Source: an uncultured Anaerolineales bacterium (GTDB lineage Bacteria > Chloroflexota > Anaerolineae > B4-G1). From it: DNA of 64,000 bases. Location: contig CAZHAX010000001.1 in assembly GCA_964530325.1 (NCBI GenBank), positions 186,128-250,127 of the forward strand. The letters run 5' to 3'. A program made the position numbers and the translations under genes. Shown here one piece after another: positions 12,703-57,653 of this stretch; position 1 is the stretch's first letter, and each line of letters begins with the position of its first letter. Under the pieces are notes generated by a model. The model was not told the DNA's origin, ran no database searches, and saw only the letters and a list, made by a program, of their open reading frames with translations.

Positions 12703-12804
12703 GATGCTGGACCGCCGGGGCCCGTCTGCGTACCGGCGGCTCCTATACGTCTGGAACCTATCTGTCTAATGGCAGGTGATAGCAACGGTGGCAGGTGTTC
12801 CCGT

Positions 12805-14079: not shown

Positions 14080-14105
14080 GCGGCGGCCCTTGTAGCTGTC
14101 ATCAC

Positions 14106-37372: not shown

Positions 37373-38719
37373 ATGAGCGAAGGGCGCACTAGCGTGGAAC
37401 AAGAGCGAATCAAGGTACTGATAGTCGACGACATCGGGGAGACCCGGGAGAACCTGCGTAAACTGCTGTCGTTCGATCCCGGCATCGAAGTGGTCGGTGC
37501 GGCGGCGTCCGGGCCTGAAGGCATCGAGATGGCCAAGGAGTTCCTGCCGCATATCGTGCTGATGGACATTAATATGCCGGACATGGACGGCATAGCGGCC
37601 ACGGAGGCGCTGCTGCAGGAAGTGCCCAACGCCCAGGTGGTTATCGTCTCCGTTCAGGGCGAGACGGACTACGTGCGCCGGGCCATGCTCGCCGGTGCGC
37701 GCGATTTTCTGACGAAGCCGCCCAGCGGTGACGAGCTCATGAGCACCATCCGGCGCGTGCACGAGAAGGGCCGCTCGCGGCGGGAGATGGTTCCTGCCGA
37801 AGCTACTGCCGATGGCCAGCGCAAGCAGAAGGCGGCGCCGAAGGAGGATGCGCGCGGCGACGTGATCGCTGTATTCGGTCCCAAGGGCGGCGTGGGCTGC
37901 ACCACAATCGCCGTCAATCTGGCGATCGCAATGCAGGAGATGGCCGGAGATGGCGGGAAGGTCGCGCTGATAGACACCAGCCTTCAGTTTGGAGACGTGG
38001 GGGTAATGCTCAACCTGAGGGCGAATCGCAGCATAGCTGATCTGGCTGACGAGATACTAGAGGTGGACAGCGACTTGCTCAGCAGCGTCATGACCGCCCA
38101 CGGCTCCGGGATCAAGGTCTTGCTCGCCCCGCCTCACCCGGAGGCTGCGGAGAGCCTAATCTCAGGCACTGCCGGCGAGCGTGCGGGAGGAGACCGCAAG
38201 CTGAAGCGAATACTGGAGGTGGCGAAGCGCGAGTTCAACACTGTGGTCGTGGACACCTGGAGCTGGCTTGACGACAACGCCCTGACCGTCTTCGACGTAG
38301 CCTCGCTGATCGTTCTGGTTGTGGATCCGTCGATACCGGCGATCAAGAGCGCCCGCCTCCTGCTGGAGGTGGCCGGCAAGCTCGACTACCCCATGGCCAA
38401 GATCGCGCTGATCGTCAACGGAGCGGGCAAACGCTCGTTGGTTCGCCGTGAGCAGATAGAGCAGGCCTTGATCCCGGTGATGGCAGAAATACCTGTGGAC
38501 GAGCAGGCTGCCGAGGAGGCGGCGAACCGCGGTGTTCCGCTGCTGATGCGCGATAGGAGCCGGCCCATCTGTCAGAGCCTAATGGAACTGGCGTCTAAGA
38601 TCCAAGAGCGGCTCGCGGTGCCGGAGGAAGCCGAAGATACCGAAGAGGCGATTCCGTCGGCGCTGAAGGGGTCTGGAGGCACAGGCCTGCTCCGGTTGAG
38701 AAAGGTCTTCGAGAAGTAG
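37373..38719 (+). CDS. cpaE: CpaE/TadZ pilus assembly ATPase (N-terminal receiver domain + MinD/ParA-like P-loop ATPase)
   Basis: IKVLIVDDIGETRENLRKLL...IVLMDINMPDMDG is the REC domain. VIAVFGPKGGVGCTTIAVNLA is the deviant Walker A of MinD/ParA/CpaE. Confidence 0.85.
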   Translation: MSEGRTSVEQERIKVLIVDDIGETRENLRKLLSFDPGIEVVGAAASGPEGIEMAKEFLPHIVLMDINMPDMDGIAATEALLQEVPNAQVVIVSVQGETDYVRRAMLAGARDFLTKPPSGDELMSTIRRVHEKGRSRREMVPAEATADGQRKQKAAPKEDARGDVIAVFGPKGGVGCTTIAVNLAIAMQEMAGDGGKVALIDTSLQFGDVGVMLNLRANRSIADLADEILEVDSDLLSSVMTAHGSGIKVLLAPPHPEAAESLISGTAGERAGGDRKLKRILEVAKREFNTVVVDTWSWLDDNALTVFDVASLIVLVVDPSIPAIKSARLLLEVAGKLDYPMAKIALIVNGAGKRSLVRREQIEQALIPVMAEIPVDEQAAEEAANRGVPLLMRDRSRPICQSLMELASKIQERLAVPEEAEDTEEAIPSALKGSGGTGLLRLRKVFEK

Positions 38720-38849
38720 CCTTGCTGCACAGGCGAAGCGCTGGGCGTGTACGAAGTGCAGGAAGACGATGAACTGGATCCGACCCGGTCGGACCAATGC
38801 TTGGTTGGTAGATCAGCACTGAGTACGCCCGGGGTGGAGAGGTGAGTGG

Positions 38850-40223
<1,374 letters not shown>

Positions 40224-40306
40224 GCGGCGGGCGGCGTTGAGGCGTGTGCGCACATAGCGCGTGAGAAGCGAGAGACAGACGGCTGGGGTTAGGCAGTAGA
40301 CTGAAC

Positions 40307-41251
40307 ATGTCGATCGTGTACTTCGTTCCGTTGGGTCTCGGTTTCCTTCTGCTTGTCGTCGGCTTTGTGATGTCGCGGCGCTCGTCGAGCTCGCTTATTG
40401 AGGAGCGGCTCGGCATTAGCGATGAGCCGGTCGAGGTCACAGAGGGCGTCAGCAAGCGCAAGTCCCCCGTGGGAGAGGCGCTCACACGCGTGCTAGCCCA
40501 GCGGGGCGTGGGAGCCGGGTTGAGCACGCAGCTCGCACAGGCGGATCTCAAGCTTACCGTCGGCGAGTTCATAGCCGCCACAGTAGTCCTCGTCATTGTC
40601 GCTTCAGCTCTGGCCTTCGTCTTGGCCGGGGACGTTCTGATAGTGGGCGTGGTTGTCCTGGCCGGAATCTTCTTGCCACGCTTCTATCTGAAGAGGTTGC
40701 GTGGCCAACGGCTCAAGAACTTCAACGACCAGTTGGGCGATGCCTTGAACCTGATCGTCAACTCCCTGCGAGCCGGCTACAGCGTCCTGCAGGCCATGGA
40801 ATCGGTGGCCCAGGAGATGGGCCCGCCCATGTCTGTAGAGTTCGGACGGGTGCATCAGGAAGTGCAGCTGGGTCTGACTCTCGAGGATGCGCTGGCACAC
40901 ATGACGCGGCGAATCACCAGTGAAGACCTGGACATGACGGTCACCGCCATAAACGTTCAGCGCGAGGTCGGCGGCAACCTGGCGGAGGTGCTGGACTCGA
41001 TCAGCCATACGATTCGCGAGCGTGTGCGCATTCGGGGTGAGATCCGGGCCCTGACGTCCTACGGTCGCGGAGCGGGTACGATGCTCAGCGCCATACCCAT
41101 CATCCTGTCCGGGTGTATATACACCATTCAGCCGGATTTCATGTCCGCGATGTTCACCCACACATGCGGCTATATCCTCACAGCAGCCGCCGTGTCGGGC
41201 ATCGTCCTTGGCTATGTCATCATCCGCAAGATCGTGAACATCGATATCTAG
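40307..41251 (+). CDS. tadB: Flp pilus assembly membrane protein TadB (GspF-like)
   Basis: Polytopic with T2SSF-like cytoplasmic domain (FNDQLGDALNLIVNSLRAGYSVLQAMESVAQEM). Confidence 0.8.
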   Translation: MSIVYFVPLGLGFLLLVVGFVMSRRSSSSLIEERLGISDEPVEVTEGVSKRKSPVGEALTRVLAQRGVGAGLSTQLAQADLKLTVGEFIAATVVLVIVASALAFVLAGDVLIVGVVVLAGIFLPRFYLKRLRGQRLKNFNDQLGDALNLIVNSLRAGYSVLQAMESVAQEMGPPMSVEFGRVHQEVQLGLTLEDALAHMTRRITSEDLDMTVTAINVQREVGGNLAEVLDSISHTIRERVRIRGEIRALTSYGRGAGTMLSAIPIILSGCIYTIQPDFMSAMFTHTCGYILTAAAVSGIVLGYVIIRKIVNIDI

Positions 41252-41271
41252 CGGGTCGGGGGAATGCTACG

Positions 41272-42222
41272 ATGACTGGTGTGCTGATTGTGGCTGCTCT
41301 AGTCTTGCTGGGCGGCGGCATCGCGGTCGCGGTTGGTCTGTCCCGCTCCCGCGAGCCGGTGACCATAGAGGACCGTATCGCTGAATTCGCCACTCTGGAG
41401 CGGCCGCCCACCTTGGAGGAGCTGGAGCTCTCTGCGCCCTTCTTCGAGCGGGTGCTCATTCCGATGCTCCGATCGATCTCTGAGCTGGTCGGGCGACTCA
41501 CGCCGAGGCAGCAGATCGAGGCGACACAGCACAGTCTGGAACTGGCCGGGTATCCGTACGGGTGGGGCTCCGCTGAGTTTGTCGGCGTTCGGCTGCTGGC
41601 CACGCTGCTGCTGGGCGCGATGGGCGTGGCGCTGTCTGTCCTCGGCCAGGACCTGCAGTTCCTTGTGCGGATCCTGCTGGCCGTGGGTGGTGTCGTGGGC
41701 GGATACTATCTGCCGTCGCTATGGCTCAAGAGCAAGATTAGCCAGCGGCAGCGAGCAGTGATCAGGGCCCTGCCGGATGCGCTCGACCTCCTCACCATCT
41801 GCGTTGAGGCCGGCCTGGGCTTCGATGCTGCCATGGCCAAGGTGGCTGAGAAGTGGGACAATGAGCTGAGTCAGGCCTTCTCACGTGTGATCCAGGAGCT
41901 CCAGTTAGGCAAGCTCAGACGTGAGGCCTTGCGCGATATGGCCGACGGCATGGAAGTGCCGGACATCTCGTCGTTCGTGGCAGCCATCATCCAAGCGGAC
42001 CAGCTTGGCGTCAGCATCGCCCGGGTGCTGCGGATTCAGTCTGACCAGATGCGGGTACGGCGGCGGCAGAGAGCCGAGGAGATGGCTCGTGCAGCGACGC
42101 TCAGGATCCTTCCCCCGGTGGCATTCTTCATCTTCCCTTCGATCTTTGTCGTGCTGCTTGGGCCGCCGATGATCCAGATGTTGACCTCGGACGTAGGTCT
42201 CTTCTCTTTCGGGGGTTTCTAG
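41272..42222 (+). CDS. tadC: Flp pilus assembly membrane protein TadC (GspF-like)
   Basis: T2SSF-like (ALPDALDLLTICVEAGLGFDAAMAKVAE...). ATG at 41272 is the internal Met of the track ORF 41113. Confidence 0.8.
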   Translation: MTGVLIVAALVLLGGGIAVAVGLSRSREPVTIEDRIAEFATLERPPTLEELELSAPFFERVLIPMLRSISELVGRLTPRQQIEATQHSLELAGYPYGWGSAEFVGVRLLATLLLGAMGVALSVLGQDLQFLVRILLAVGGVVGGYYLPSLWLKSKISQRQRAVIRALPDALDLLTICVEAGLGFDAAMAKVAEKWDNELSQAFSRVIQELQLGKLRREALRDMADGMEVPDISSFVAAIIQADQLGVSIARVLRIQSDQMRVRRRQRAEEMARAATLRILPPVAFFIFPSIFVVLLGPPMIQMLTSDVGLFSFGGF

Positions 42223-45745: not shown

Positions 45746-46447
45746 TTGGCCCCAGTCCACACCATCTTGCTCGTGGAAGGCAGAAAGCCGACTTCAGCTC
45801 AGCAGGCACCGCTTCTCAACGACCGCGGGGTGCGAGTGGCGACGGCCTGCACCAGGAGGGAGGCGTGGGCCAGGGCCCTCAAAGGGAAGCCTTCCGTGAT
45901 CGTGCTGGACTCCCCGTCTCTGCGCTTCGACTGCCCTCGCTTCTGTGAGTCGCTCCGCAAGGAGGGTATTGAGATCCCCGTGCTGATGCTTCTGCCAGCG
46001 GGGCAGAAGGCTGACCGCAGTCTTGGCGCTCGGGCGTATCTCTCGTACCCTTTCTCTCCGAGGCGGCTCGTGAACAAGATAGTGCGCCTGCTCCCGTCGC
46101 CTGATGACGAGATGATTCAGCTGGGCGACATAGCGCTGAATCTCAAGAAGAGGAACGTCGTCCGGGGTAGGCGAGAGACACATCTGACGCCCAGACAGGC
46201 TAGTCTGCTGGAGGTCTTCATGAAGCACCCCGGGGACGTGCTTACCAGGGCCTACCTCATGAAGCATGTCTGGGATACCGACTACGTAGAAGATACGCGC
46301 ACTCTGGACGTACACGTCCACTGGGTGCGCAAGGCGATCGAAGACGATCCCCGAGCCCCCAAGTGCCTGCGCACGGTGCGCGGGGTGGGCTATCGGCTGG
46401 CAGTTGAAGAAGGGAAAGAGAAGCGGAGGCGTACCAAGAGCAGCTGA
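45746..46447 (+). CDS. OmpR/PhoB-family winged-helix regulator with degenerate receiver domain
   Basis: C-terminal LTPRQASLLEVFMKHPGDVLTRAYLMKHVW...LDVHVHWVRKAI...LRTVRGVGYRL is the trans_reg_C domain. The N-terminal REC-like region is poorly conserved. Confidence 0.65.
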   Translation: MAPVHTILLVEGRKPTSAQQAPLLNDRGVRVATACTRREAWARALKGKPSVIVLDSPSLRFDCPRFCESLRKEGIEIPVLMLLPAGQKADRSLGARAYLSYPFSPRRLVNKIVRLLPSPDDEMIQLGDIALNLKKRNVVRGRRETHLTPRQASLLEVFMKHPGDVLTRAYLMKHVWDTDYVEDTRTLDVHVHWVRKAIEDDPRAPKCLRTVRGVGYRLAVEEGKEKRRRTKSS

Positions 46448-46530
46448 CGGCCCCGGTCTTCTGTGTCTACGGCGCTGACCCCAAGTCGGCCGCGGTGTGG
46501 TCACAGCGGGAGATGCTCGGCAAAACAGAG

Positions 46531-46558
46531 GCCCGTCCTGTAGCCAGGACGGGCTTTG
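46531..46558. terminator. Bidirectional rho-independent terminator between convergent genes
   Basis: aaaacagag gcccgtcctg tagc caggacgggc tttgta: perfect 10-bp stem flanked by an A-tract and a T-tract. Confidence 0.6.
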
Positions 46559-46605
46559 TACTCAGTTCGCGAGCCTTGGCGGGCAAGCCAGGGGGGCGAA
46601 CGAAC

Positions 46606-47037
46606 TCAGCACAGGGTTGCTCTTATCAATGCCACCGCCCGGCTCGTCACCCGGCGGTACGATGTTCCTGGTGGGATGCTGGCGATCAGGATCAAGTTCT
46701 CACCGTCCAGGCTGATCTCGCGGCAGACCAGTCGCGCGCCATCGCTGGTGCGTAGCGTCACTTCGTCCACGTCGGCCAGCCCCAACTGCTTCTGTGCCTC
46801 GCTGCCGGCCTTCCGCAGAACTGCTATTAGAGCCGCCGTCGTGTCGCTGCTGTACTCGGCGGGAACGGTGGCTATCGGCAGGCCCTTGGAGGAGGCCAGC
46901 ACCACGGCGCGGAAACCGCCTTCCGCGTAAGCGGCGGCCAGGGCCTCGTCCAGGGAAACTGGCTGCGACCTCTTGCCTTTCGTTCTCCTAGCGCTCATTT
47001 GCAGGACCTCCTGTGGTGTCACGTCGCTCTGTCGCAC
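46606..47037 (-). CDS. Roadblock/LC7 domain protein (MglB-like), immediately downstream of mglA
   Basis: GFRAVVLASSKGLPIATVPAEYSSDTTAALIAVL...ENLILIASIP is the Roadblock signature. 5-nt gap to mglA. Confidence 0.7.
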   Translation of the reverse strand: MRQSDVTPQEVLQMSARRTKGKRSQPVSLDEALAAAYAEGGFRAVVLASSKGLPIATVPAEYSSDTTAALIAVLRKAGSEAQKQLGLADVDEVTLRTSDGARLVCREISLDGENLILIASIPPGTSYRRVTSRAVALIRATLC

Positions 47038-47041
47038 CTGA

Positions 47042-47626
47042 CTACAGCTGCCTCTGAGCCTTGGCCACGACCAGGTTGATGATCGCCTTCAAGGTCTCGA
47101 AGACGCCCGTGCCCTCCGTAGCCACCGATTCCAAGCACGGCACTCCGTTGAAGCTGAGCTGCTGCTGCATCACGTGGACGGGCACGATGTCCAGCAGATC
47201 CCGCTTGTTGCACTGCAGCACGAGGGGCATGGTTCTGGAATCGCAGCCCAGATCCATCAGGTTCTCGTCCATATTGCGGCGCATATCGACATTGGCCCGC
47301 TCCCGATCCTGCTGGGAGTCGGCGACGAACACAATCCCGTCTGCCCCTTGCAGTACCAGCTTCCGGCTGCCTACGTAGTAGACCTGCCCTGGCACTGTGT
47401 ACAGATTGAAGCGCGGCTTGAGCCCGGCGATCTGGCCCAGCTCCAGCTGCAGAAAGTCGAAGTAGATGGTACGGTCGCCGCGCGTCTTGAGCGACACCAA
47501 CTCGCCCCGGATCTTGGGGCTTGTCTTCAGGTGGATGTACTGCAGGTTCGTCGTCTTGCCGCTGAGTGCGGGCCCGTAGTACACGATCTTGAGGTTGATC
47601 TCACGCAGCTTCCAGTTGATGAACAT
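47042..47626 (-). CDS. mglA: MglA-family Ras-like small GTPase
   Basis: [32 protein letters not shown]...[13 protein letters not shown]...YTVPGQVYY...QCNKRDL is near-collinear with M. xanthus MglA ([49 protein letters not shown]). Confidence 0.9.
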   Translation of the reverse strand: [194 protein letters not shown]

Positions 47627-47641
47627 TGGCCGTGTCCGGTT

Positions 47642-48130
47642 CTAGAGCCCGCCGAATTCCTCTTCCAGCGCGCTGGCCAGAGCTGCGCCGAAGTCCGCAC
47701 CTGGCCCATCCTGCGTGGAGACCAACATCTGCTCGAATCCCTCTGTCAACTCGTGCAGCTCGGTTGCCGCCCGTCCGGCGAAGAGCCTGACCAGGCCCAC
47801 CAACGTATCCGAGCTGAAGATAACAACCAGTATGAAGGTCCCTCCCACGTTGTACAAGTAGATGTTGTGCTTCTCTCCTTCGTGGAGAAAGGCCCCGCTG
47901 GGCTGCTCTTCTCCGATCAGCCTGTTCAGCTCGGCCGTTGCCGCCAGATCACCGGCCGCCAGGGCGGCGACAAGCGTTGGATCGGTCTCCAGTCTGCCCT
48001 GGGCGGCGACCAGCCGGCCTGTGATGTCCGCGAGCAGGACGCATTCGGCGCTCGTCTTCTCGCGCAGATGCGCCATTACTCGCTCAATCCGATCTGACAT
48101 CTCCTCTGGCAGCGCGAAGTCGCTCGTCAC
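47642..48130 (-). CDS. Roadblock/LC7 domain protein
   Basis: ECVLLADITGRLVAAQG...HNIYLYNVGGTFILVVIFS is the Roadblock fold pattern. Confidence 0.65.
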   Translation of the reverse strand: MTSDFALPEEMSDRIERVMAHLREKTSAECVLLADITGRLVAAQGRLETDPTLVAALAAGDLAATAELNRLIGEEQPSGAFLHEGEKHNIYLYNVGGTFILVVIFSSDTLVGLVRLFAGRAATELHELTEGFEQMLVSTQDGPGADFGAALASALEEEFGGL

Positions 48131-48260
48131 GTGAGTACCTCGATTCTCGGTGCTGTACCGGTGGGTTGTGCGACGCGCGGCGGCAGTTGGGCAGTTCGTT
48201 ACCGCCTCCAGCGCGGCCGTTCACTAGCGTCGCTCAGGTGTCAGGGTGCCTAGGCGATCG

Positions 48261-48752
48261 TCAGCGTCTCAGTGTCGACGCCATCATCTCGGCGCGGGTC
48301 ATCCGCCTGCCGTCTTCAGGCCCGGAGCCGTCGTCCTGCTCCGCCTTCGCGGCTGCTGCAGCCGGCGCCGGCGTCGCAGCTACTGGAGCTCCGCTCAGGT
48401 CGATCTCCTTGATGCGCTGGCGCAGCTTGCCCACAGCCACGTCCGCCGTGAGGTTCAGCAGCGGCACGTTGATGCGCCGAACGCATATAATCCCGAGCAC
48501 GCCGCCTTCGGACCCAAGCCCTTTGACGATCAGGCGGCTGTCGGCGTACAGCAGGTCGATGTCGCCAACCTTTCTGCGCCGGGCAGTGTGCAGCCCGGCA
48601 ACGGTCTGCGCCATCGTGCGCGCCACAGGCGATAGGACGGCGTCGTCAAAGACCTCCGGGAGGGCCCTGGCGAGCATTTCCCCATCGCTGTCGCAGACGA
48701 ACGAGCCGGTCACTCCGACAACGGCATTGACGTCCTGCAGTATTTCTTCCAT
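48261..48752 (-). CDS. Roadblock/LC7 domain protein, CxC/LNLTA subfamily (paralog of 4579..5238)
   Basis: MEEILQDVNAVVGVTGSFVCDSDGEMLARALP...GIICVRRINVPLLNLTADVAVGKL. Start at the internal Met (48752). Confidence 0.65.
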   Translation of the reverse strand: MEEILQDVNAVVGVTGSFVCDSDGEMLARALPEVFDDAVLSPVARTMAQTVAGLHTARRRKVGDIDLLYADSRLIVKGLGSEGGVLGIICVRRINVPLLNLTADVAVGKLRQRIKEIDLSGAPVAATPAPAAAAAKAEQDDGSGPEDGRRMTRAEMMASTLRR

Positions 48753-48929
48753 CACACTAACCTCCACTGCCAACTCGTGAGACCTGCACGCCACCGGACG
48801 CTACGTTGTGGGCGGATGCCCTCCAGGCGACACGGGTCCCAGCAGTATCCGCCTGGCTCGATCCTCGCGGTCGGTCCTGAACCTGCTCGACGCTCCACGT
48901 CCGTTCTCTGCGCTGACAACTGCACGCTG

Positions 48930-49424
48930 CTACTGTGCATCCTTTCTAGAGCTCCTGCCTGTCGACGTGCGACTGAGAACCGCCAGCATTTCTGTCTTGG
49001 TCATTGGCTCGGGAGCCGCTTTCGTGCCCGCTTGCTCACGCGGTTGTGTCTGCAGCAGGGCTCCTGCTGCTTTCATCTCCGCGATCATCTGCTCCAGCTT
49101 CCTGGCGGCGAGGTTTGCCGTGACGTTCAGAAGTGCCACGTTGATTTGGGCTATGCAGACCAGACATAGGCAGCCCTCTGTGCCCAGGGGTTTGAGTATG
49201 AGCCGGCCACCATCGTACATCAGGTCGATGTCCCCCATCTTGCTCTTCCCGTTCGTCTTGGCAGCAGCAACGATCTTCGCTACTGCCTCCATGACGGCTT
49301 GGGGGGGAGATGCCTGGCTCACGCCTGGCGACATCACGTGCTCCAAGAGCTTCCCGCCATCGGAGACGACAAAGGCGCCGATCACTCCATTAACTGCGCT
49401 GATGTCCATCAGGATGTTTCGCAT
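48930..49424 (-). CDS. Roadblock/LC7 domain protein, CxC/LNLTA subfamily
   Basis: MRNILMDISAVNGVIGAFVVSDGGKLLEH...CLCLVCIAQINVALLNVTANLAARKL. Confidence 0.65.
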   Translation of the reverse strand: MRNILMDISAVNGVIGAFVVSDGGKLLEHVMSPGVSQASPPQAVMEAVAKIVAAAKTNGKSKMGDIDLMYDGGRLILKPLGTEGCLCLVCIAQINVALLNVTANLAARKLEQMIAEMKAAGALLQTQPREQAGTKAAPEPMTKTEMLAVLSRTSTGRSSRKDAQ

Positions 49425-49448
49425 CTTGCACCGTCCTGCCTGCTGCGT

Positions 49449-49772
49449 CTAGCCAAGAGCTTCCCGCGCGCTCGAGGCGACTATCGCTGGTGAGGCTCTG
49501 TCCGCCAGGAGCAGACCTACGTAGTAGTCTGGCTGCTCCATTACGAGCACAACCTCGTTGCCAATCGTCACCGTGCCCCAGTCGAAGGGGCCGAGGGCGA
49601 GCGATTCGCTCGCCTGGCTCGCCGCGTTGCCAACGAAGACGGCGACAGCCCCTTCCTTGTCCGGACTGGCATCGTTGAGCTCGTGGGCCAGCACTATTCC
49701 ATCACGTGCAGCTATCACCACCCCGTCCACTCCATCGATCTTGCTCAACTTGGCGGCCAATTCCTGTATCAT
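49449..49772 (-). CDS. Roadblock/LC7 domain protein (minimal, 107 aa)
   Basis: KIDGVDGVVIAARDGIVLAHEL...WGTVTIGNEVVLVMEQPDYYVGLLL. Confidence 0.7.
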   Translation of the reverse strand: MIQELAAKLSKIDGVDGVVIAARDGIVLAHELNDASPDKEGAVAVFVGNAASQASESLALGPFDWGTVTIGNEVVLVMEQPDYYVGLLLADRASPAIVASSAREALG

Positions 49773-49844
49773 TCCGATGCCTCCCTTCAGCCTCCCGAGC
49801 CGTCTTGTCTGGACCGGCGCCGCCTGCCCGGATAGCGCGCTTAC

Positions 49845-50315
49845 CTAGGTCCAGAGATCGAGCACCTTCTCCAGGATGCCCTCGGTGCTCTGGGCCATGG
49901 CGGGCTCCCGCCCTGGCCCCTGCTCAGGGGATGATTGCTCTGGTATTGTCTTCCTCTTGGGTAGTTTCTTGATCATTCGTCCCAGCTTTCGGGCGGCCAC
50001 GTTGGCCGTCAGATTCACCTGCGACACGTCGGCGTGGGGAGCACACAGTATGCACAGGCAGCCCGAGCCGGAGACCTTGACGACCAGCCGTCCGTTGCTG
50101 CAGTGGAGGTCGACTTCGCCGACGTCAGACAAGCTCACGCTCTTCAAGCCGGTGACGATTTGGGCCACGCTGGACGCCGCGCACCCCTGTGCTGTACCGT
50201 TGCCGCTTCCGGGGGGCACCGCGACCGCGAGTAGCGCGCCATCCCCATCGCAGACGAATGAGCCAATCACTCCGTATATCGCGTTGATGTCACTCAGTAT
50301 GCTGTCCATCGCCAC
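49845..50315 (-). CDS. Roadblock/LC7 domain protein, CxC/LNLTA subfamily
   Basis: MAMDSILSDINAIYGVIGSFVCDGDGALLA...CLCILCAPHADVSQVNLTANVAARKL. Confidence 0.65.
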   Translation of the reverse strand: MAMDSILSDINAIYGVIGSFVCDGDGALLAVAVPPGSGNGTAQGCAASSVAQIVTGLKSVSLSDVGEVDLHCSNGRLVVKVSGSGCLCILCAPHADVSQVNLTANVAARKLGRMIKKLPKRKTIPEQSSPEQGPGREPAMAQSTEGILEKVLDLWT

Positions 50316-50328
50316 TCGTTCTGAGCTT

Positions 50329-51396
50329 CTAGTGCAAGGCTTGCTTGGCGCTGGCCGCTACGTTGGCGGCCGATGCCCTCTGGTTGAGCAGCATCCCTAC
50401 GAAGTAGTCTGGCCGCTCCATCAGCAGCATCTTCTCCTTGCCGAGCGCCACCGTGCCCCAACTGAAGCTGCCAAGAGACAGCGGCTTTCCCAGTTGGCCG
50501 GCGGCACCCAGCACGAGAACGGCTATGGAGCCCCTGTTTCCGGGCGCGTCATCCAACTCGTGGGCGACCACGGACCCGTCGTGCGCAACGACGACGACCC
50601 CTGTGACACCCTGTATATCCTTGAGAGCGCTGGCCAGGTTCGCGGCTACCTGGTCACCGTCGACTTCGGTCTCATCAGTGAGGAGCTCCAGGTCGACCAA
50701 GCCGGCCATCCCCTCGTCCATGCGGCGGGCGCCTTCCAGCAGCAGTCCGGACCAGCTGCCCTCGATCGTCCTCTTGGGAGCGGAGACGCCCATCTGCAAC
50801 TCGAATTCCCCCTCTTCCCAGGTCAGGAGCTCATAGACGGCATCCGCGCCTGTTTTCTTACCCAGGGCGGCGTGGACGACGTTGCCTTCGGCGAAGTAGA
50901 CCTTGCCTTCTTGGCCGGCCTGCCGGATCCGGAGTAGCGCCTCGTTCCGCTCTGCGCAGTTGATCTGCACGATGTTGGGCAGACTCAGGCTGCGCAGGTT
51001 GCCCTGAACGACCGCGCCACCCTTCGACTCCAGGATACGGCGCACCGCCGCCACCAGGGTCTTGGCATCGAGGGGCTTCTCCAGGAACTCGCAGGCGCCA
51101 AGCTGCAGGGCCTCGACTACGTTCTCCTTCGTGCCGTAGGCCGTGAGGATTGCGACTGAGGCCCGTGGGTTGTGCTCTCTGATCGCGGCCAGAAGCTTGA
51201 GGCCGTCCATGCCGGGCATCTTCAGGTCTGTGACCACGAGGTCGAAGTCCTCGCTCCGGTACAGCTTGATCGCGCTGGCGCCGTCCGAGGCTCCCTCGAC
51301 GGAGAAGCCTTCCAGCTGGAGTATCCTCTTGCACGTCTTGACCACGTTGGGTTCGTCGTCTACCACTAGAACGCGTTTCTGAGCCATTGCCACCAC
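50329..51396 (-). CDS. Response regulator receiver + DUF4388 (PATAN-like) + C-terminal Roadblock/LC7 domain
   Basis: REC (RVLVVDDEPNVV...LVVTDLKMPGMDG...KPL). The middle region LPNIVQINCAERNEALLRIRQAGQEGKVYFAEGNVVHAALGKKTGADAVYELLTWEEGEFEL matches the DUF4388 consensus as I recall it. The C-terminus IQGVTGVVVVAHDGSVVAHEL...WGTVALGKEKMLLMERPDYFVGMLL is a Roadblock domain closely related to 49449..49772. Confidence 0.75.
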   Translation of the reverse strand: MVAMAQKRVLVVDDEPNVVKTCKRILQLEGFSVEGASDGASAIKLYRSEDFDLVVTDLKMPGMDGLKLLAAIREHNPRASVAILTAYGTKENVVEALQLGACEFLEKPLDAKTLVAAVRRILESKGGAVVQGNLRSLSLPNIVQINCAERNEALLRIRQAGQEGKVYFAEGNVVHAALGKKTGADAVYELLTWEEGEFELQMGVSAPKRTIEGSWSGLLLEGARRMDEGMAGLVDLELLTDETEVDGDQVAANLASALKDIQGVTGVVVVAHDGSVVAHELDDAPGNRGSIAVLVLGAAGQLGKPLSLGSFSWGTVALGKEKMLLMERPDYFVGMLLNQRASAANVAASAKQALH

Positions 51397-51425
51397 TCCC
51401 TCATTCAGTCAGCTAACGCCTGCTC

Positions 51426-52455
51426 CTAGCCGTCAAGCTCCGGCGGAATGATTCCCTTTGCCACTGCCGATTCATAGTCCAGCAGCTCTCTGTCCTCCTC
51501 GTCTCCGTAGAGGTCCTGTGCCTCGAGTTCCTTCCGGCTGGGGCCCGGAGCCGGCGCGGCGGCGGGCCTGGCCTCACCTGATGCCTCAGACAGCACCGCA
51601 TCAAGCTCTGCCATCAGCGAGGAGCCGAACTCCGCGTCCAGTACCTGAGCGGGCACGCTGGCCGTGCTGTCAGCCAGCGTGTTCATCAGGCTCTCGACCG
51701 CTCTCCTGGTGTAGAGCCACACAAGCCCAATCCGGCTTGCCTGGGCCTTCCGATCGTAGACGATGGCCAGGAAGAAGTCCTCCCCCACGTTGGCGGAGTA
51801 GATCTCGTAGCGCGCACCCTCGTGGAAATTGAGGTTGATCGCATTGCCACTGCCGAAGTACTCGGCCAGCCCTCTGGCGGTAGCGAAGCCGCCTGCCAAC
51901 AGCGAAAGCAGGGCAGAGGGATCCGGCCCCAGCTGGCCCCCGGCCTGTGCCAGGCGCTGGCCCAGCATGTCCGCCAGATGTATCGACTGGGCGCCGATCT
52001 CACGCCGCAGCTCCTCCAGGTGCTTGGTGATCTCCTCAAAGGTCTGATCCGAGAGGATGACCAGGCCCGGTTGGCTCATCGCCTCGTCCGGAAGAGCCCT
52101 CTGGACCGCCTTCATGAGCACGTCCACCTTGAGGGGCTTGGAGATGTATCCGGCTACACCCAGGCTGCGGGCCTCTTCCTCGATCGCGCTGCTGCCGTAT
52201 GCGGTCACCAGAATCGAGCGCGTCTCCGGGCTGGAGGTCTTCACCTGCCGAATCAGCTCCAGGCCGCTGATCCCCGGCATTCTCAGGTCCGTGACCATCA
52301 GGTCCACGTCTTCCTTCGAGATGGCTTGCAGCGCCTCCTCGCCGGACTCGACTACCGTGACCCTGTAGGTCTGGTTCGAGCGCTCCAGCACCTTCTTCAG
52401 AAAGGCCGCTACCGACGGCTCGTCGTGCGCAATGAGGATGTGTTTCTGGGCCATT
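51426..52455 (-). CDS. Response regulator receiver + Roadblock-like C-terminal domain
   Basis: REC (HILIAHDEPSVAAFL...LMVTDLRMPGISG...KPL). C-terminal FHEGARYEIYSANVGEDFFLAIVY is Roadblock-like. ATG at 52455 is the internal Met of the track ORF. Confidence 0.7.
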
Positions 52456-52608
52456 TGCCTATATCTGCTCTCGCGGAAGCAGTACCGAGCCGTTTGGCCC
52501 TGGCTTCCGTCAGCATCTCTATCAACAATATAGCACAAGGGGCACGGTTTGTGGGTTCCGAGAACCTCCCACACAGGGTGCAGTTACGTTCCGGCAGGCG
52601 TAGCCTGC

Positions 52609-53457
52609 CTACTGCTTCTGATGGCTCTCGGGGGGAGGGGACGGGGCGCAGACAGCGTAGCCGCTGCCGCGCACCGTAAGGACCACGGGGGGGTCGTCCG
52701 GGCGGGGCTCCAGCTTCTGCCGCAGACGATGGATGTGCGTCCGCAGCAAGACCCGCGCATCGCGCTCGTCGAGTTCGTAGCCTCGAATGTGCAGGACGAG
52801 CTCCCGGCAAGAGATGACCCTGTCCCGGTGGCGGATGAGATACGCCAGGATGTCGAACTCGGTTGGCGTCAGCTCGACAGGCTGGCCACGCAGCACCACG
52901 AGGCGCCTCAGGCTGTCCACAGTCACATCCGCCACTTGGAGGAAACGCTCGACCGGAGCCTGAGCATCCGGCCGCTGGGGGCTATCCCTGAGAGTGACGA
53001 GGACTCTCTCCAGGAGCTTCACCGGCTCATCGTCGTGCAACCTGCGGCTGCGCTCCGCCAGGCCGGCCTCTACGGCTCTGGCGATTTCATCTGTGGAAGA
53101 CGGCTTGAGCAGATAGTCGAAGGCGCCGTGCCGGATGGCAACGATGGCCGAATCGAGCGAGCCGTAGCCTGTGAGGATGACAAAGACCGTGTCCGGGGCC
53201 ATCCTGCAGGCCCGCTGAAGAACGTCGGTCCCCTCCATGTGCGGCAGCTTGAGGTCGAGGACGACGAGATCGAAGATCTCAGATTCGATCTGATCCAACG
53301 CCGCCTTGCCTGTGGCCGCCTCACTAGCGTCGTACCCCATGTGGCGGAAGAGCCCGGTCAGCGTCCGGCGTATAGCCTGGTCGTCGTCCACCACCAGGAT
53401 TCGCGGTCGGGCCGTGGTCGAGCGCTCTAGACTCTCGGCCTGTCTTGAGGTGACCAT
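52609..53457 (-). CDS. OmpR-family response regulator
   Basis: REC (RILVVDDDQAIRRTL...LVVLDLKLPHMEG...KP) + trans_reg_C (LTPTEFDILAYLIRHRDRVISCRELV...LRTHIHRLRQKL...VLTVRGSGY). Confidence 0.85.
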   Translation of the reverse strand: MVTSRQAESLERSTTARPRILVVDDDQAIRRTLTGLFRHMGYDASEAATGKAALDQIESEIFDLVVLDLKLPHMEGTDVLQRACRMAPDTVFVILTGYGSLDSAIVAIRHGAFDYLLKPSSTDEIARAVEAGLAERSRRLHDDEPVKLLERVLVTLRDSPQRPDAQAPVERFLQVADVTVDSLRRLVVLRGQPVELTPTEFDILAYLIRHRDRVISCRELVLHIRGYELDERDARVLLRTHIHRLRQKLEPRPDDPPVVLTVRGSGYAVCAPSPPPESHQKQ

Positions 53458-53503
53458 CGCTACATCTTCCAGTCGAGCGTCCGGCCTTGCTGCGGGTATG
53501 GGT

Positions 53504-55117
53504 TCACGTCCGACCCGCAGGGATCTCAGCCTCTGCCTTCACAGGAAGCAGCACGGTGAACTCGGCTCCCTTGTCGAGTTCGCTCTCGACGGTGATCTCG
53601 CCCCCATGGCGCTCGACCACGTTGCGGCTGATGGCGAGGCCCAGCCCTGTGCCCTTCTCACGCGTGGAGAAGAACGGCTCGAAGATGCGTTCCAGATGTG
53701 CCTCTTCGATGCCGTGCCCCGTGTCTCGGAACTTCAGCGCTACACGCCCGTCGTCCGCAACGGCGCTGGAGACGGATACCGCGCCCCCGTCCGGCATGGC
53801 ATCGACGGCGTTCAGCACCAGGTTGATGACCACCTGCTCCAGCTCATCGGGCGCTGCCACTATGCTGGGCAGGTCGGGCGCCAGGTCTCGGTGTACAGAC
53901 ACGTCACGATGCTGCAAGTACTTGGCAGCGAGCGTGAGGACTCGGTCGATGATGGAGTTCACGTCCGTGGGCTCCATCTCCCGCCGAGGAGGACGCGCAA
54001 ACTCAAGTATGCTGGTCACCATGCCCATCAGCCGCTGGATCTCCTCATCGGCTATCTGCAGGTACTCCCTCTGCTCCTTGATCTCCAGGGGGAAGTCGAG
54101 CATCAGCTGCAGGCTGTTGTGGATGGCCTGGAGAGGGTTGTTGATCTCGTGGGCGAGCGAGGCGGCCAGGCGACCGGTGGCTGCCAGCTTGTCGCTCTGC
54201 ACCAGTTGGAGGCGGGACTGCTCGAGCAGGCTGCGCAGCTCTCGCTCCGCCTGATACAGTCGGGCGTTGGTGATGCCAATGGCGGCGGATCCGGCCAGCG
54301 TGGCCAGCAGCTCGATGTCGTGGTGGTCGAACTCGCCGGCAGCCTTGTTGACGGCCAGGATGGCACCGATCGTGCTGTCTTTGTACGACAACGGCACCGC
54401 CAACAGGGAACGGGTGGCCTCACCTGCCAGGGCGTCTGTTCTGTCCGAGAAGCGGTCGTCGCTCCGCGCGTCCGGCACCAATGCTGGTTCGCCGCTGGAC
54501 ACCACCGAGCCGGCGATTCCCTCATTGGAGGCGGCGGTAGACCCGATCGAAGGGCCGGCATCGGCCCCGGCCGCGGCGGCAACCCTCAGTTCGTCCGTGC
54601 CTCTCTCGAGGAGAATCACAGCGGTCGCCTCCGCGCCCAACATGTCCCTGGCTTCCGCCATGGCCAGGTTCAACACCTCATCCGGATCGAGAGTGGCAAT
54701 CATCGCCTGAGTGGCCCGACTGAGCGCGGTGAGACGCTTGCGGAATCGGCGCCCCTCCATCGCCCGCTGCACTGTCGACCGGATGACGTCGGCGTGGAAT
54801 GGCTTGGTGACGTAGTCGCAGGCACCCAAGCGGAGAGCATCTATCGCGTTCTCCACCGATGCGTAGGCTGTGAGGACTATGATCGCCACCTGAGGCGACC
54901 GGTCACGGATCTGCTTCAACACCTCCATGCCGTCCATATCGGGCAGCATCATGTCGAGGACCGCCACGCCGAACCGCCCAGCCTCCATTGCCTTCAAGGC
55001 GTCCTTCCCGCTGGTGGCCAAGACGATCTCGTAGCCCAGGGGCGAGAGGCATTCTCTCACCAGATCGCACATCCCCCGGTCGTCGTCCAGAATGAGGACC
55101 CTGTCTTGGCTGGCCAT
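53504..55117 (-). CDS. Hybrid sensor kinase: N-terminal receiver + GAF + HisKA + HATPase_c
   Basis: REC (RVLILDDDRGMCDL...VAVLDMMLPDMDG...KPF). GAF-like (DPDEVLNLAMAEARDMLGAEATAVILL...LLAVPLSYKDSTIGAILAVN). H-box LAASLAHEINNPLQAI. N/G boxes (VINLVLNAVDAM, RDTGHGI, GTGLGLAISRNVVERHGGEI). The antisense ORF 53306..55141 is rejected. Confidence 0.85.
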   Translation of the reverse strand: MASQDRVLILDDDRGMCDLVRECLSPLGYEIVLATSGKDALKAMEAGRFGVAVLDMMLPDMDGMEVLKQIRDRSPQVAIIVLTAYASVENAIDALRLGACDYVTKPFHADVIRSTVQRAMEGRRFRKRLTALSRATQAMIATLDPDEVLNLAMAEARDMLGAEATAVILLERGTDELRVAAAAGADAGPSIGSTAASNEGIAGSVVSSGEPALVPDARSDDRFSDRTDALAGEATRSLLAVPLSYKDSTIGAILAVNKAAGEFDHHDIELLATLAGSAAIGITNARLYQAERELRSLLEQSRLQLVQSDKLAATGRLAASLAHEINNPLQAIHNSLQLMLDFPLEIKEQREYLQIADEEIQRLMGMVTSILEFARPPRREMEPTDVNSIIDRVLTLAAKYLQHRDVSVHRDLAPDLPSIVAAPDELEQVVINLVLNAVDAMPDGGAVSVSSAVADDGRVALKFRDTGHGIEEAHLERIFEPFFSTREKGTGLGLAISRNVVERHGGEITVESELDKGAEFTVLLPVKAEAEIPAGRT

Positions 55118-55151
55118 TCACGCTCTCCTGGTTGGCAATGATCTCAGATCT

Positions 55152-56480
55152 CTACTGCTGCTGACTTACAGGTACGTATATGCGGAAAGGCAGCGGCTCG
55201 TAGGCCTGGTTGGTTCCCAGTTCACCGCTCTCCGAGCCTCCGCCAATTGCGTAGACCGTTCCCTCCAGCACCGCCAGCCCGGGGCCGCGCCACTCGCCTA
55301 CGAGAGGCGTCTCGATGGGACTCCAGGAACCATCAGATGGGCTGTACCGCTCGTTGAAGCCAAGGTAGGTTGTCTCCCCTGCCGCACCGATGGCGTAGAG
55401 CTGACCTGCCAGAGGCGCCAGACCGAGCCCCGCTCGCCCAACGGCCATGGAGGGGCAGGAACCCCAAGTTTCGGATGCGGGGTCAAATACGGAGCAGGTC
55501 CTGAGCTCCTGGCTGCCATCGTAGCCGCCGACTACGTAGATGAGGTTTCCCAGCGCGGCGGCGGAGGCGAAGGCGCGCCCGGAGTCCATAGGCACCGAAC
55601 TGGACCACCGGTCGGCGTCCGGATCGTATACGTAGGTGTCCGCTGTATAGCGGCTGCCGTCCCACCCGCCGAATAGGTATATGCGCCGATCGTAGACCGC
55701 GAGCGCGGATGCGCAGCGGGCCTCGGGCATAGCGCTGGCCTGCCGCCAGGAATCGGTCACTGGGTCGTAGACCTCGACCGAGCCCACGGGATTGGAGTCC
55801 TGGTCGCAGCCACCGGGCAAGAACACTTCCCCCTCCAGAATGGCGGCCGACACTCCGAAGACGGGCGTCGGCTTGTCGCGGCCGCGCGTCCACAGGTCGT
55901 TTGCTGGGTCGTACCGCTCGACTACGGCGGTCGGTCCGTCTTCCGTCAGACCAGCGATGGCCAGGACCTGGTGCTCCAAGCCGACTGCGGCAAGGTAGGA
56001 GCGCCTGGTGGGCATCTGGGCACGCTCCGACCAGCTCGAATCCTGCGCTACGGCCATTCCGGGCTGGGACAGGCCGCCCTGCTGCCCAAGCGGGAGCTCC
56101 GCTGCATCGTCCCCGTTCGCGCCGTTGGAGGGCCCAGTGGCCGCAAAGGATGCAGCCACCAGCAGTGCTGCAGCCACGAGCGTCACCCGTCTCCAGCCTG
56201 GCAGGGGCGCCGCGATAGACGCGGGCCGGCCGGGCCCAACCTTCCCTGCCTCCTCCGGAAGGGCCCCCTTCAGGCGGACTATGCCTTCCCGCACCGCTAT
56301 GACGGTAGCCTCTGTGCGCGATTCGGCGTTCAGCTTGCCGAACACGTTGCGCAGGTGCACTTTCACCGTGTTAGCGCTGATTCCGAGGCGGTAAGCGATC
56401 TCCCGGTTGGTGACGCCTGTGGCCACCATCTCCAGGATCTCGATCTCGCGCTGGGTCAGGGATTCGCGCAGCTCGTCCAT
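55152..56480 (-). CDS. LuxR-family HTH + single TM + extracytoplasmic Kelch-repeat beta-propeller protein
   Basis: Start MDELRESLTQREIEILEMVATGVTNREIAYRLGISANTVKVHLRNVFGKL (LuxR HTH). TM (VTLVAAALLVAASFAA). Five or more Kelch-like repeats (AAVGLEHQVLAIAGL, AAILEGEVFLPGG, ALAVYDRRIYLFGGWDG, AAALGNLIYVVGGYDG, LAPLAGQLYAIGA). Confidence 0.7.
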   Translation of the reverse strand: MDELRESLTQREIEILEMVATGVTNREIAYRLGISANTVKVHLRNVFGKLNAESRTEATVIAVREGIVRLKGALPEEAGKVGPGRPASIAAPLPGWRRVTLVAAALLVAASFAATGPSNGANGDDAAELPLGQQGGLSQPGMAVAQDSSWSERAQMPTRRSYLAAVGLEHQVLAIAGLTEDGPTAVVERYDPANDLWTRGRDKPTPVFGVSAAILEGEVFLPGGCDQDSNPVGSVEVYDPVTDSWRQASAMPEARCASALAVYDRRIYLFGGWDGSRYTADTYVYDPDADRWSSSVPMDSGRAFASAAALGNLIYVVGGYDGSQELRTCSVFDPASETWGSCPSMAVGRAGLGLAPLAGQLYAIGAAGETTYLGFNERYSPSDGSWSPIETPLVGEWRGPGLAVLEGTVYAIGGGSESGELGTNQAYEPLPFRIYVPVSQQQ

Positions 56481-56594
56481 GCCTTCATGCGGTCCGCCTA
56501 GCGGGGCTCGGGAAGAGTGCCATCCCGTGTGGCGCCGGCGGGCACTGCCGGGCTCCCCATAAAGACGGGCAGGAAACGGGTTCTTGCGAGAGCG

Positions 56595-56604
56595 ATTATA
56601 GCAC
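56595..56604 (-). promoter_or_regulatory. Extended -10 promoter GTGCTATAAT for the LuxR-Kelch gene (minus strand)
   Basis: Reverse complement of gattatagcac. Same 10-mer as at 27226 and 27257. Confidence 0.35.
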
Positions 56605-56801
56605 ACGGGTCGCTGCGGGCAAGAGCCTGGCTGCTTCTGCCCCGCGAGTTGCCGCCGACGGCCCTCCCGGCGGCCACCAGCCGTCTTGCGCCTGTCAGTT
56701 GCGCTCGACCACAGAGTGGGACCTCGCCCGGCGCACGGCCAGCGGTGCACACAGGGCAGGCCTGTCCTGGCACTCCATGCTATGATCGTGCGCGCGGCCG
56801 G

Positions 56802-57653
56802 TCAGTCGAGATGGACCGGAGTCGCGCAAGCGTTGTCAAACCAAGCCCCTGGTCCTTGCGCAGATGCCTCGCCGCGACGCCCTGGCCTGTCAGGCGGCCC
56901 CAGGCTCTCCTGCAGCAGCGCCCTCAGCACTTGAGGTAGGTTCGTTATGATGCCGTTGACGCCCAATCCGATCAGGCGGCGCATCTCGGCTGGCTCATCC
57001 ACGGTCCAGGCCTGCACTTGCATCCTGCGGCGCCGGGCCCGGCTGATGTACAACCGGTCGATGACCGTATGCTCAGGGTGGATAGCCGATACCGCGAGCA
57101 GCGACCCGAGCAGCATGAGTAGCCGCTGGCAGGGGAAGGCGTGGCTGGCCAGCATCCCGAGCTGGAGGTGCGGCGCCAGCCTCTTGGTCTGCAGCAGCGC
57201 GAACGGGTTGAAGGAGGAGATGAGTACGGAGCTGCCCAATCTGAGCCTCTCTACCTCTGCCACGGCAGCGGCGGGCAGCCGGGTGTCGAGCGCGGAGGTG
57301 CTCTTGAGCTCGAGGTTCAGCAGCAGGCGATCCTTGGCCCACGTCAGCAGCTCCTCCAGCGTGGGTATCTGCTCGCGGCGATAAGCAGCGTCGAACTGGC
57401 TGCCCACGTCGATTGCCTTCAATTGCTCCAGAGTCAAGTCTGCGACGCGAGGGTTGCTGCCGTCAGGCAGCAAGACGGTGGAGTCGTGAATCACCACGGG
57501 AACGCCATCGCCGGAGAGGCGCACGTCGAACTCGACTCCGTCCGCGCCGAGCTCGTACGCCTTGCGCACGGCAGACAGGGTGTTGGGTGGGGCGACGCTG
57601 CTGGCACCGCGGTGCGCGATGTTGAGCACCCGCCCGTCGCCAACGGCGCCCAT
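56802..57653 (-). CDS. Glycerophosphodiester phosphodiesterase (GDPD) family
   Basis: LNIAHRGASSVAPPNTLSAVRKAYELGADGVEFDVRLSGDGVPVVIHD is the GDPD HR(G)/E/D motif set. Start ATG 57653 overlaps the stop of the upstream AAA gene by 1 nt. Confidence 0.75.
   Translation of the reverse strand: MGAVGDGRVLNIAHRGASSVAPPNTLSAVRKAYELGADGVEFDVRLSGDGVPVVIHDSTVLLPDGSNPRVADLTLEQLKAIDVGSQFDAAYRREQIPTLEELLTWAKDRLLLNLELKSTSALDTRLPAAAVAEVERLRLGSSVLISSFNPFALLQTKRLAPHLQLGMLASHAFPCQRLLMLLGSLLAVSAIHPEHTVIDRLYISRARRRRMQVQAWTVDEPAEMRRLIGLGVNGIITNLPQVLRALLQESLGPPDRPGRRGEASAQGPGAWFDNACATPVHLD

Follow-up and report, generated by a model that had tools for sequence, protein, structure and literature searches.

One group-1 MglA and eight Roadblock domains in a single gene block of an uncultured Anaerolineales bacterium

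The MglA/MglB pair is the model for the establishment of bacterial front-rear polarity by a Ras-like switch. Here we describe a gene block built around an MglA-like GTPase in a 64,000-nucleotide stretch of contig CAZHAX010000001.1, from an uncultured Anaerolineales bacterium; the whole stretch is called the window below, and all coordinates are window positions. The block lies on the minus strand (46606-52454) and comprises nine co-directional open reading frames (ORFs), which we label p1 to p9 in transcription order. Together they encode one group-1 MglA and eight Roadblock-fold domains. The latter are carried by p1, p2, p3, p4, p5, p6, p7 and p9, and in two of these proteins (p1 and p2) the Roadblock domain is fused to a receiver (REC) domain. 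An earlier note, made from the sequence alone, had counted seven Roadblock domains, although its own list adds to eight. The composition that it gave the block (one MglA, a REC-Roadblock, a REC-PATAN-Roadblock and stand-alone Roadblocks) holds, as Pfam, profile comparisons and structure models agree on it. The block is a lineage-specific enlargement of a conserved five-Roadblock core, the additions being p3, p4 and p5.

The nine ORFs are present where the earlier note had placed them, save for some of their starts. That of p1 is at 52454 and not at 52455, from which the frame runs into eight stop codons, and the shorter starts given in Table 1 for p2, p3, p6 and p9 are backed by public gene calls. 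All nine products occur in such calls in exact look-ups, and all of the ORFs are intact. With the corrected starts, the successive intergenic gaps from p1 to p9 measure 38, 19, 72, 24, 177, 130, 15 and 43 nt, in a window whose G+C content is 62-68%.

The GTPase, p8, aligns end to end with the MglA structures of Thermus and Myxococcus (3t12, 6h17 and 5ymx; E about 1e-63), its residues 3-189 matching Thermus MglA at E 1.3e-63, and it is 50-55% identical to motility MglAs. Its motifs comprise the P-loop GPALSGKT, the G3 motif YTVPGQ, the G4 motif NKRD and an intrinsic Arg within an 11-residue stretch. An intrinsic Arg in G2 and a TVPGQ-type G3 are the marks of a group-1 MglA (PMC4316618), and p8 has both. 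Judged by these motifs, p8 is a canonical group-1 MglA that carries its own Arg finger and Gln. The earlier note had proposed asking which of the Roadblock paralogues retain a catalytic Arg/Asn. The premise is mistaken, since it is MglA itself that provides both the Arg finger and the Gln in group-1 systems (PMC4316618), and p8 has the two.

The last gene of the block, p9, had been taken for the MglB-like one. The MglB is instead p7, which lies upstream of mglA and matches Myxococcus xanthus MglB (6h5b and 6izw) at E 4e-20 and Thermus MglB (1j3w and 3t12_B) at E 2e-8; p9 belongs to a generic Roadblock family (D, below). Further, p7 ends 15 nt ahead of mglA, inside the span of four genes from mglA by which an mglB is recognized. 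Homology and position together mark p7 as the cognate MglB of p8, and it is presumed to be the GTPase-activating protein (GAP) of MglA. In p1, a receiver (Response_reg, 93.9 bits) is followed by a Roadblock domain that scores 60.6 bits, over residues 128-288, against the NCBIfam Thermus MglB model NF052242. By these matches, p1 joins a canonical receiver to another complete domain of MglB type, the second in the block.

We read the MglB motifs from an alignment of p7, p1, M. xanthus MglB and orthologues. Both block proteins retain the SLxAGxxAA helix, with the equivalent of the invariant M. xanthus Ala64, and the HEG motif. Both also end in an acidic tail, (G/D)A(D/E)FGxxLxxxL(E/D), which aligns with the tails of MglB proteins from other phyla (loci L039 and L069 of the comparison set described below) and which we take to resemble the C-terminal helix of M. 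xanthus MglB. The signature of a coupled MglB, D-x-x-G, is present as LADITGR in p7 and as LADMLGQ in p1; in coupled MglB proteins an Asp stands three residues before an invariant Gly (D36 and G39 in M. xanthus), whereas the MglC clade has an adjacent D-G (PMC4719450). At the positions equivalent to M. xanthus K14, R115 and K120, the MglB patch that binds MglC (PMC10329633), p7 has basic residues, which p1 retains only in part.

An all-against-all BLAST comparison splits the eight domains into four subfamilies: A (p7 and the C-terminus of p1, 30% identical to each other), B (p4 and the C-terminus of p2, residues 254-354, 56% identical), C (p3, p5 and p6, 38-43% identical) and D, of which p9 is the single member. 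Pfam alone is not decisive for them. The gathering cut-off of Robl_LC7 (PF03259), 23 bits, is exceeded only by p1 (23.8 bits), p7 (40.4) and p9 (30.3); p4 (21.1 bits, with a weak additional match to MAPKK1_Int/LAMTOR3, MAPKK1_Int at 21.6 bits), p5 (17.2), p6 (13.9) and p2 (13.6) fall below it, and p3 has no Pfam match. Each subfamily was therefore checked separately.

For family C, an AlphaFold2 (AF2) model of p5, made from an alignment that includes p3 and p6, has a pLDDT of 75.7 (core about 90) and the topology alpha-beta-beta-alpha-beta-beta-beta-alpha. All 50 of the PDB matches listed by Foldseek for this model are Roadblock proteins (E from 2e-6, probability 1.0), among them 9jue, Asgard Roadblock3, LAMTOR subunits, MglB and MglC, the last (7ct3) at rank 24 of the matches listed. 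Robl_LC7 is matched by 20 of 45 family C members. A word-indexed homology search returned only five close relatives, and an exhaustive profile search 530 cluster representatives at E<=1e-3; family C is thus real but modest. The family D profile finds the Asgard Roadblocks 7f8f (E 4.9e-8) and 7f8m (8e-8), and the profile pairs A-C, A-D and C-D reach 92-95% probability in hhalign. Family B fares weakly in profile-profile comparison (0.8% against A, 54% against C, and 19% or 26% against D) and was for this reason confirmed by other means: Robl_LC7 is matched by 14 of 26 orthologues of REC-PATAN-X type (best E 6.6e-16), its profile finds Asgard Roadblock 7f8f at E 1.6e-6 and then dynein LC7 and LAMTOR3, and an AF2 model of p2 (pLDDT 82.7) has the Roadblock topology at residues 247-354. 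MglC is absent from the PDB matches of the family B and D profiles. The automatic JGI annotation assigns all eight proteins, or near-identical cluster mates, to the COG "Roadblock/LC7/MglB family". The earlier note had allowed that its Roadblock ORFs might turn out to be unrelated small proteins; all four subfamilies are confirmed as Roadblock by Pfam, by profile matches to the PDB or by predicted structure.

With respect to the D-G motif of the MglC clade, also called MglB_orphan1, whose genes are usually unlinked to mglA, family B has R/H-D-G; in family C, p3, p6 and the consensus read D-x-D-G and p5 reads S-D-G-G. D-G is common in generic Roadblocks. At their C-termini, p3, p5 and p6 have a long helix and an Ala/Pro/Glu linker of low complexity, and they finish with a short conserved motif. 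The motif is PMTRAEMLA-like in p5, in p6 and in the orthologues of these two, and it is predicted, at low confidence, to be helical; it might serve as a docking peptide, in the manner of the C-terminal helix of MglB. RdxA_C, the Pfam label of a 156-aa neighbour gene in locus L091, was considered as a name for family C and rejected, as that protein matches none of the Roadblock hidden Markov models (HMMs) and the literature offered nothing of relevance on the label.

A ninth Roadblock gene lies far from the block, at 4342-5238 on the plus strand, with a probable true start near 4576 and a C-terminal extension of about 100 aa. It matches the family C HMM at E 7.6e-39, has no Pfam match and is a fourth copy of family C. 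Its stop overlaps the start of an ORF for a 4HB_MCP-like protein with a HAMP domain (5235-6020, plus strand).

In p2, the order of domains is REC (residues 9-119; Response_reg, 114 bits), PATAN (131-228; DUF4388/PATAN, 80.2 bits against a cut-off of 25) and Roadblock. This is not the PatA-type architecture, in which PATAN is N-terminal to REC. REC-PATAN-Roadblock proteins are common in Chloroflexota metagenomes and form more than 100 clusters at 90% identity. The receivers of p1 and p2 both have the canonical residues, namely the DE pair, the acceptor Asp in TDL(R/K)MPG, the Thr in TAYG and the Lys in KPL, and both look functional.

We compared the block with 80 species-representative loci around close relatives of the MglA and with several long metagenome contigs, 92 loci (numbered with the prefix L) overall, classifying their ORFs with the window domains and the subfamily HMMs. 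The MglB-MglA pair is a nearly universal core across the 92 loci, and most phyla have that pair only. Among the 80 loci, co-directional Roadblock domains near mglA number none in 8, one in 40, two in 20, three in 7, four in 4 and six in 1. Nor is the locus singular. Anaerolineae loci L087-L090, whose MglA is 79-85% identical to p8, share a fixed order of (REC), REC-A, REC-PATAN-B, C, A (MglB), MglA, D and REC-GAF, a core of five Roadblock domains whose single C protein matches p6 best, and L007 (MglA 77% identical) has two C genes. Family D is downstream of mglA in L005-L011, L021, L028, L049, L050 and L085-L090. The full order A-B-C-B-C-C-A-MglA-D is found only in the lineage of the window (L002) and in L085/L086 (88% MglA identity), with 1:1 orthologues throughout. 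In Calditrichia, Gemmatimonadota, Zixibacteria and others (L013-L020, L060, L064, L067, L071, L074, L075 and L081-L084), a family C-like Roadblock, often accompanied by separate REC and PATAN genes, is found near MglB-MglA; the association of MglA, MglB, family C and PATAN may be older than the Anaerolineae.

At least three independent JGI contigs (L001-L003) carry the genes in the order of the window, as does the diverged relative L085/L086, which comes from two sources (JGI and Logan). Between the window and L085, the synonymous divergence (dS) is about 1, and the ratio of non-synonymous to synonymous divergence (dN/dS) is 0.06-0.27 for all eleven genes compared, p3, p4 and p5 included. Individual values are 0.268 for p3, 0.086 for p4, 0.20 for p5, 0.13 for p6 and 0.156 for p9, and, among the upstream genes, 0.089 for the histidine kinase and 0.139 for the OmpR-type regulator. 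Every gene of the block is under purifying selection. Paralogues within the block are 36-54% identical (dS saturated) and orthologues 62-86%. Because the paralogues are more diverged than the orthologues, the duplications are old relative to the split between the window and L085, and each copy has been maintained since.

Table 1. Genes and other features of the block and its surroundings (window positions)
Feature	Position	Strand	Remarks
p1	51426..52454	-	REC + MglB-type Roadblock (family A), then Pro/Ala-rich acidic tail; 342 aa
p2	50329..51387	-	REC - PATAN (DUF4388) - Roadblock (family B)
p3	49845..50309	-	Stand-alone Roadblock, family C; a copy that most relatives lack
p4	49449..49772	-	Stand-alone Roadblock, family B; free copy of the p2 C-terminal domain
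p5	48930..49424	-	Stand-alone Roadblock, family C; extra copy
p6	48261..48752	-	Stand-alone Roadblock, family C; best counterpart of the relatives' single C gene
p7	47642..48130	-	MglB orthologue, family A
p8	47042..47626	-	Group-1 MglA small GTPase
p9	46606..46998	-	Roadblock, family D; directly downstream of mglA
Terminator-like hairpin	46531..46554	-	10-bp stem, 8 G-C pairs, T-rich tail; consensus match
OmpR-type response regulator	52609..53457	-	REC + Trans_reg_C (Pfam); 154 nt upstream of p1
Histidine kinase	53504..55117	-	REC-GAF-HisKA-HATPase (Pfam); 46 nt upstream of OmpR-type regulator
LuxR-Kelch gene	55152-56750	-	LuxR (GerE) helix-turn-helix fused to Kelch beta-propeller; 34 nt upstream of kinase
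OmpR-like regulator	45746-46447	+	Beyond the block, opposite strand; strong DNA-binding domain
Tad/Flp (type IVc) pilus cluster	27241-42222	+	Complete; converges on mglA block, ~3.6-4.4 kb away

In a scan of 46300-57000, the hairpin of Table 1, about 50 nt past the stop of p9, is the sole terminator-like site on the minus strand, and it is likely to be the 3' end of the transcription unit. No terminator-like or sigma-70-like site was found on that strand inside the block. The only sigma-70-like match of the scan, at 56622-56595, agrees with the consensus at 10 of 12 positions and has an extended -10 TG, the number of such sites being no higher than in shuffled sequences; it stands just upstream of where the LuxR-Kelch gene is likely to begin.

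Some of the neighbouring genes travel with the locus. Orthologues of the histidine kinase hold the same position in L085-L088, L091, L012 and L021 (E 1e-98 to 1e-285), and this kinase is a candidate phosphodonor for the receivers of the block. The OmpR-type regulator is kept upstream of the block in these same loci and in L050, and the LuxR-Kelch gene is conserved with the locus in L085-L088. On the other side, the OmpR-like regulator has a weak receiver (27.8 bits against a cut-off of 30.2) and is found at that position only in the window lineage and L085/L086; in more distant relatives it is a REC-GAF gene that follows D. The Tad cluster encodes a 1274-aa protein with TadE-like and CARDB domains, a further TadE-like protein, a TadG-like protein with VWA, CpaB/RcpC, a REC-fused ParA ATPase of TadZ/CpaE type, the TadA/CpaF ATPase and TadB/TadC. 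Elsewhere in the window (12679-16336, plus strand) are genes for an HMG-CoA reductase, for a protein with an ACP_syn_III_C domain (possibly HMG-CoA synthase-like) and for a thiolase, which suggests a mevalonate-pathway cluster.

How might so many Roadblock domains serve one GTPase? We lean, with modest conviction, towards a phosphorylation-gated MglA/MglB switch on a scaffold of several Roadblock layers, probably with an output in pilus function or polarity. The p7 dimer would bind MglA-GTP by its two-helix face and stimulate hydrolysis; as in M. xanthus, its C-terminal helix may promote nucleotide exchange as well. In p1 there would be an alternative MglB, one that gains or loses access to MglA with the phosphorylation state of the receiver fused to it. 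A single protein would thereby combine what M. xanthus divides between MglB and the receiver proteins RomR and FrzX that act on it; RomR sequesters MglB (PMC13408092). Dimers of families B, C and D would lack GAP activity; stacked on one another as well as on MglB, they would form a scaffold that sets the place and the strength of the GAP activity. The models for such stacking are MglC, between RomR and MglB, and the LAMTOR dimers beneath the Rag GTPases; the RomR/MglC/MglB stack is broken by MglA-GTP and has been likened to the three Roadblock layers of Ragulator-Rag (PMC10329633). p3, p4 and p5 would add layers, or alternative partners, to the ancestral five-Roadblock core. Finally, the PATAN domain of p2 may couple the scaffold to a pilus motor, most plausibly that of Tad. 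The link to a motor is suggested because in Synechocystis PATAN serves as the output domain and binds both PilB1 and PilC (bioRxiv 10.1101/2021.06.11.447907). Tad is the natural candidate output, given the nearby cluster and the fact that the filamentous Chloroflexales have only Tad pili, the proposed drivers of their surface motility (PMC7332563).

A number of observations weigh against this proposal. Each step of the wiring is drawn from homology and gene neighbourhood, and the operon structure is read from short gaps and consensus scans; the multi-input character that the earlier note gave the block is likewise something that we infer. Where M. xanthus MglB has Gly68, p7 has Glu, which raises a question about the MglA interface. 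Families B and D look like Roadblocks of the generic archaeal and eukaryotic kind and not like MglC, and no orthology to MglC emerged from the comparisons. Since one family C copy (4342-5238) lies away from mglA, family C is not dedicated to MglA. Moreover, with the window TadA, TadB, TadC, CpaB and TadZ as queries, no Tad cluster was found near mglA in the 92 loci (flanks of up to 10 kb, shorter at contig ends), the only matches being those of REC domains to TadZ. The adjacency of Tad and mglA is therefore not conserved; it is a weak lead of little weight and may be accidental.

A more specific form of the proposal strikes us as doubtful. According to it, the four subfamilies make up a defined, partly heteromeric platform, the two receiver inputs select the MglB dimer that faces MglA, and PATAN tethers the whole to the Tad motor. 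Were it true, the platform would be a bacterial counterpart of Ragulator-Rag, and in this block MglA would be seen for the first time to control Tad (type IVc) pili; filamentous Chloroflexota have no others.

Other explanations of the block have to be set beside a phosphorylation-gated switch. It could signal to transcription, or to some other output unrelated to motility, by a logic like that of a conservon, with the GTPase-Roadblock complex modulating the upstream kinase and OmpR-type regulator. Both of these genes are conserved directly upstream and co-directional, the regulator is DNA-binding, the LuxR-Kelch gene is just upstream of them, and the window lineage and L085/L086 have another OmpR-like regulator on the downstream side. 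A kinase, a Roadblock protein and an MglA-family GTPase can indeed form one complex in conservons (PMC4316618; PMC13343842), and the lack of a conserved Tad adjacency leaves room for a different output. We nonetheless consider this explanation unlikely. The GTPase has the intrinsic Arg and TVPGQ of group 1 and its closeness to motility MglAs, and is not the group-2 GTPase of a conservon; no DUF742/CvnC-like gene was detected in the block by Pfam; the kinase is cytoplasmic and of REC-GAF type, not CvnA-like; and PATAN domains, where studied, act on pilus motors. Membership of the conservons proper, which we also considered, is ruled out by the group of the GTPase, by the lack of DUF742 among the block proteins and by the REC-GAF kinase.

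It is also conceivable, if improbable in our judgement, that the extra Roadblocks do not form a scaffold but act as independent homodimers (decoys, competitors or buffers) or are partly redundant tandem duplicates, so that the number eight would reflect dosage or sub-functionalization. The copy number of family C does vary among close relatives, from one in L087-L090 to two in L007 and three in the window; p4 is a mere free copy of the C-terminal domain of p2; and the known bacterial Roadblocks MglB and MglC are homodimers (PMC10329633). However, the old and divergent paralogues each keep a 1:1 orthologue in L085 at dN/dS 0.09-0.27, which argues for distinct and maintained functions, and the fixed order of four subfamilies across the Anaerolineae argues against plain redundancy. 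The source is a metagenome-assembled genome of an uncultured organism, and one might for that reason suspect an artefact of assembly or binning, or decaying pseudogenes. This is hardly credible: the ORFs are intact, dN/dS is far below 1, and an artefact is excluded because independent contigs (L001-L003), as well as the diverged relative, have the identical order.

Several links in the MglA/MglB system are debated, in particular whether MglB is a GAP or a guanine nucleotide exchange factor, the function of RomR, and the need for MglC as a second Roadblock protein. The Anaerolineae module hard-wires such links, with a receiver-MglB, a receiver-PATAN-Roadblock and three further subfamilies in fixed order. 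It thus offers natural constructs for asking about phosphorylation-gated access of the GAP, about the stacking of Roadblocks in bacteria and about the link between PATAN and the pilus motor. It further directs attention to a regulator of the surface motility that Chloroflexota derive from Tad pili, a process that is poorly understood. As the organisms are uncultured, the block will be approachable first by biochemistry or heterologous work.

How much of this locus is new can be stated with some precision. The 2015 survey of prokaryotic small GTPases by Wuichet and Sogaard-Andersen found at most two MglB proteins per mglA, and it records Response_reg-Robl_LC7 fusions and occasional PATAN neighbours of group-1 mglA (PMC4316618). 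According to papers that cite it, Makarova et al. had recorded REC-Roadblock fusions or PATAN neighbours of mglA/mglB in 2006. In the searchable literature, outside which most subscription journals lie, no description was found of the five-Roadblock Anaerolineae core or of the eight-domain form. Within that reach, the earlier claim of an undescribed locus is sound, REC-Roadblock fusions and PATAN neighbours having been on record before. The components and some of their pairings were already known; what appears to be undescribed is the size of the block, the fixed order of several subfamilies, and the presence of a REC-PATAN-Roadblock and a REC-MglB around one MglA.

With the MglA/MglB system of Thermus thermophilus, the block shares the core pair of a GTPase and a Roadblock-dimer GAP, but the Thermus system has been studied as a simple pair, without the accessory Roadblocks or the REC and PATAN fusions found here. 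To regard one MglA with one MglB as canonical, as the earlier note did, is too simple, for M. xanthus uses two Roadblock proteins, MglB and MglC. Its polarity module (MglA, MglB, MglC, RomR/RomX and the Frz regulators) resembles the block in its group-1 MglA, its adjacent mglB and mglA, the acidic C-terminal helix motif of MglB, the basic patch of K14/R115/K120 type and the presence of more than one Roadblock protein; further, receiver proteins act on the GAP in M. xanthus. Unlike M. xanthus, which has two Roadblocks and an unlinked mglC, the block has eight domains of four subfamilies clustered with mglA, and two of its proteins carry a receiver of their own, one joined directly to an MglB-type domain and the other to a PATAN-Roadblock. 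No homologue of RomR, RomX or RomY was recognized among the nine block proteins.

The actinobacterial conservon (CvnA-D) likewise encodes a kinase, a Roadblock protein and an MglA-family GTPase together. The block differs from it in having a group-1 and not a group-2 GTPase, no DUF742/CvnC, a kinase of REC-GAF type and many Roadblocks in place of one. Ragulator-Rag (LAMTOR2/3/4/5 and the C-terminal domains of RagA/C) also combines several Roadblock domains with one small-GTPase system, and LAMTOR proteins are among the fold matches of family C. Unlike Ragulator-Rag, the block has a GTPase that is not fused to a Roadblock and has no p18-like wrapping subunit. The block is known from genes and predicted folds; the resemblance is architectural and not one of demonstrated descent, and layered, nucleotide-responsive Roadblock dimers are common to the two as a concept only. 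The cyanobacterial PatA-type regulators (PixE, PixG and TaxP1) differ from p2 in being PATAN-REC proteins and not REC-PATAN-Roadblock, and the pilus genes near the block are of Tad type and not type IVa pilB/pilC. What p2 shares with these regulators is the combination of a PATAN domain with a receiver, and PATAN genes are regularly found near mglA/mglB.

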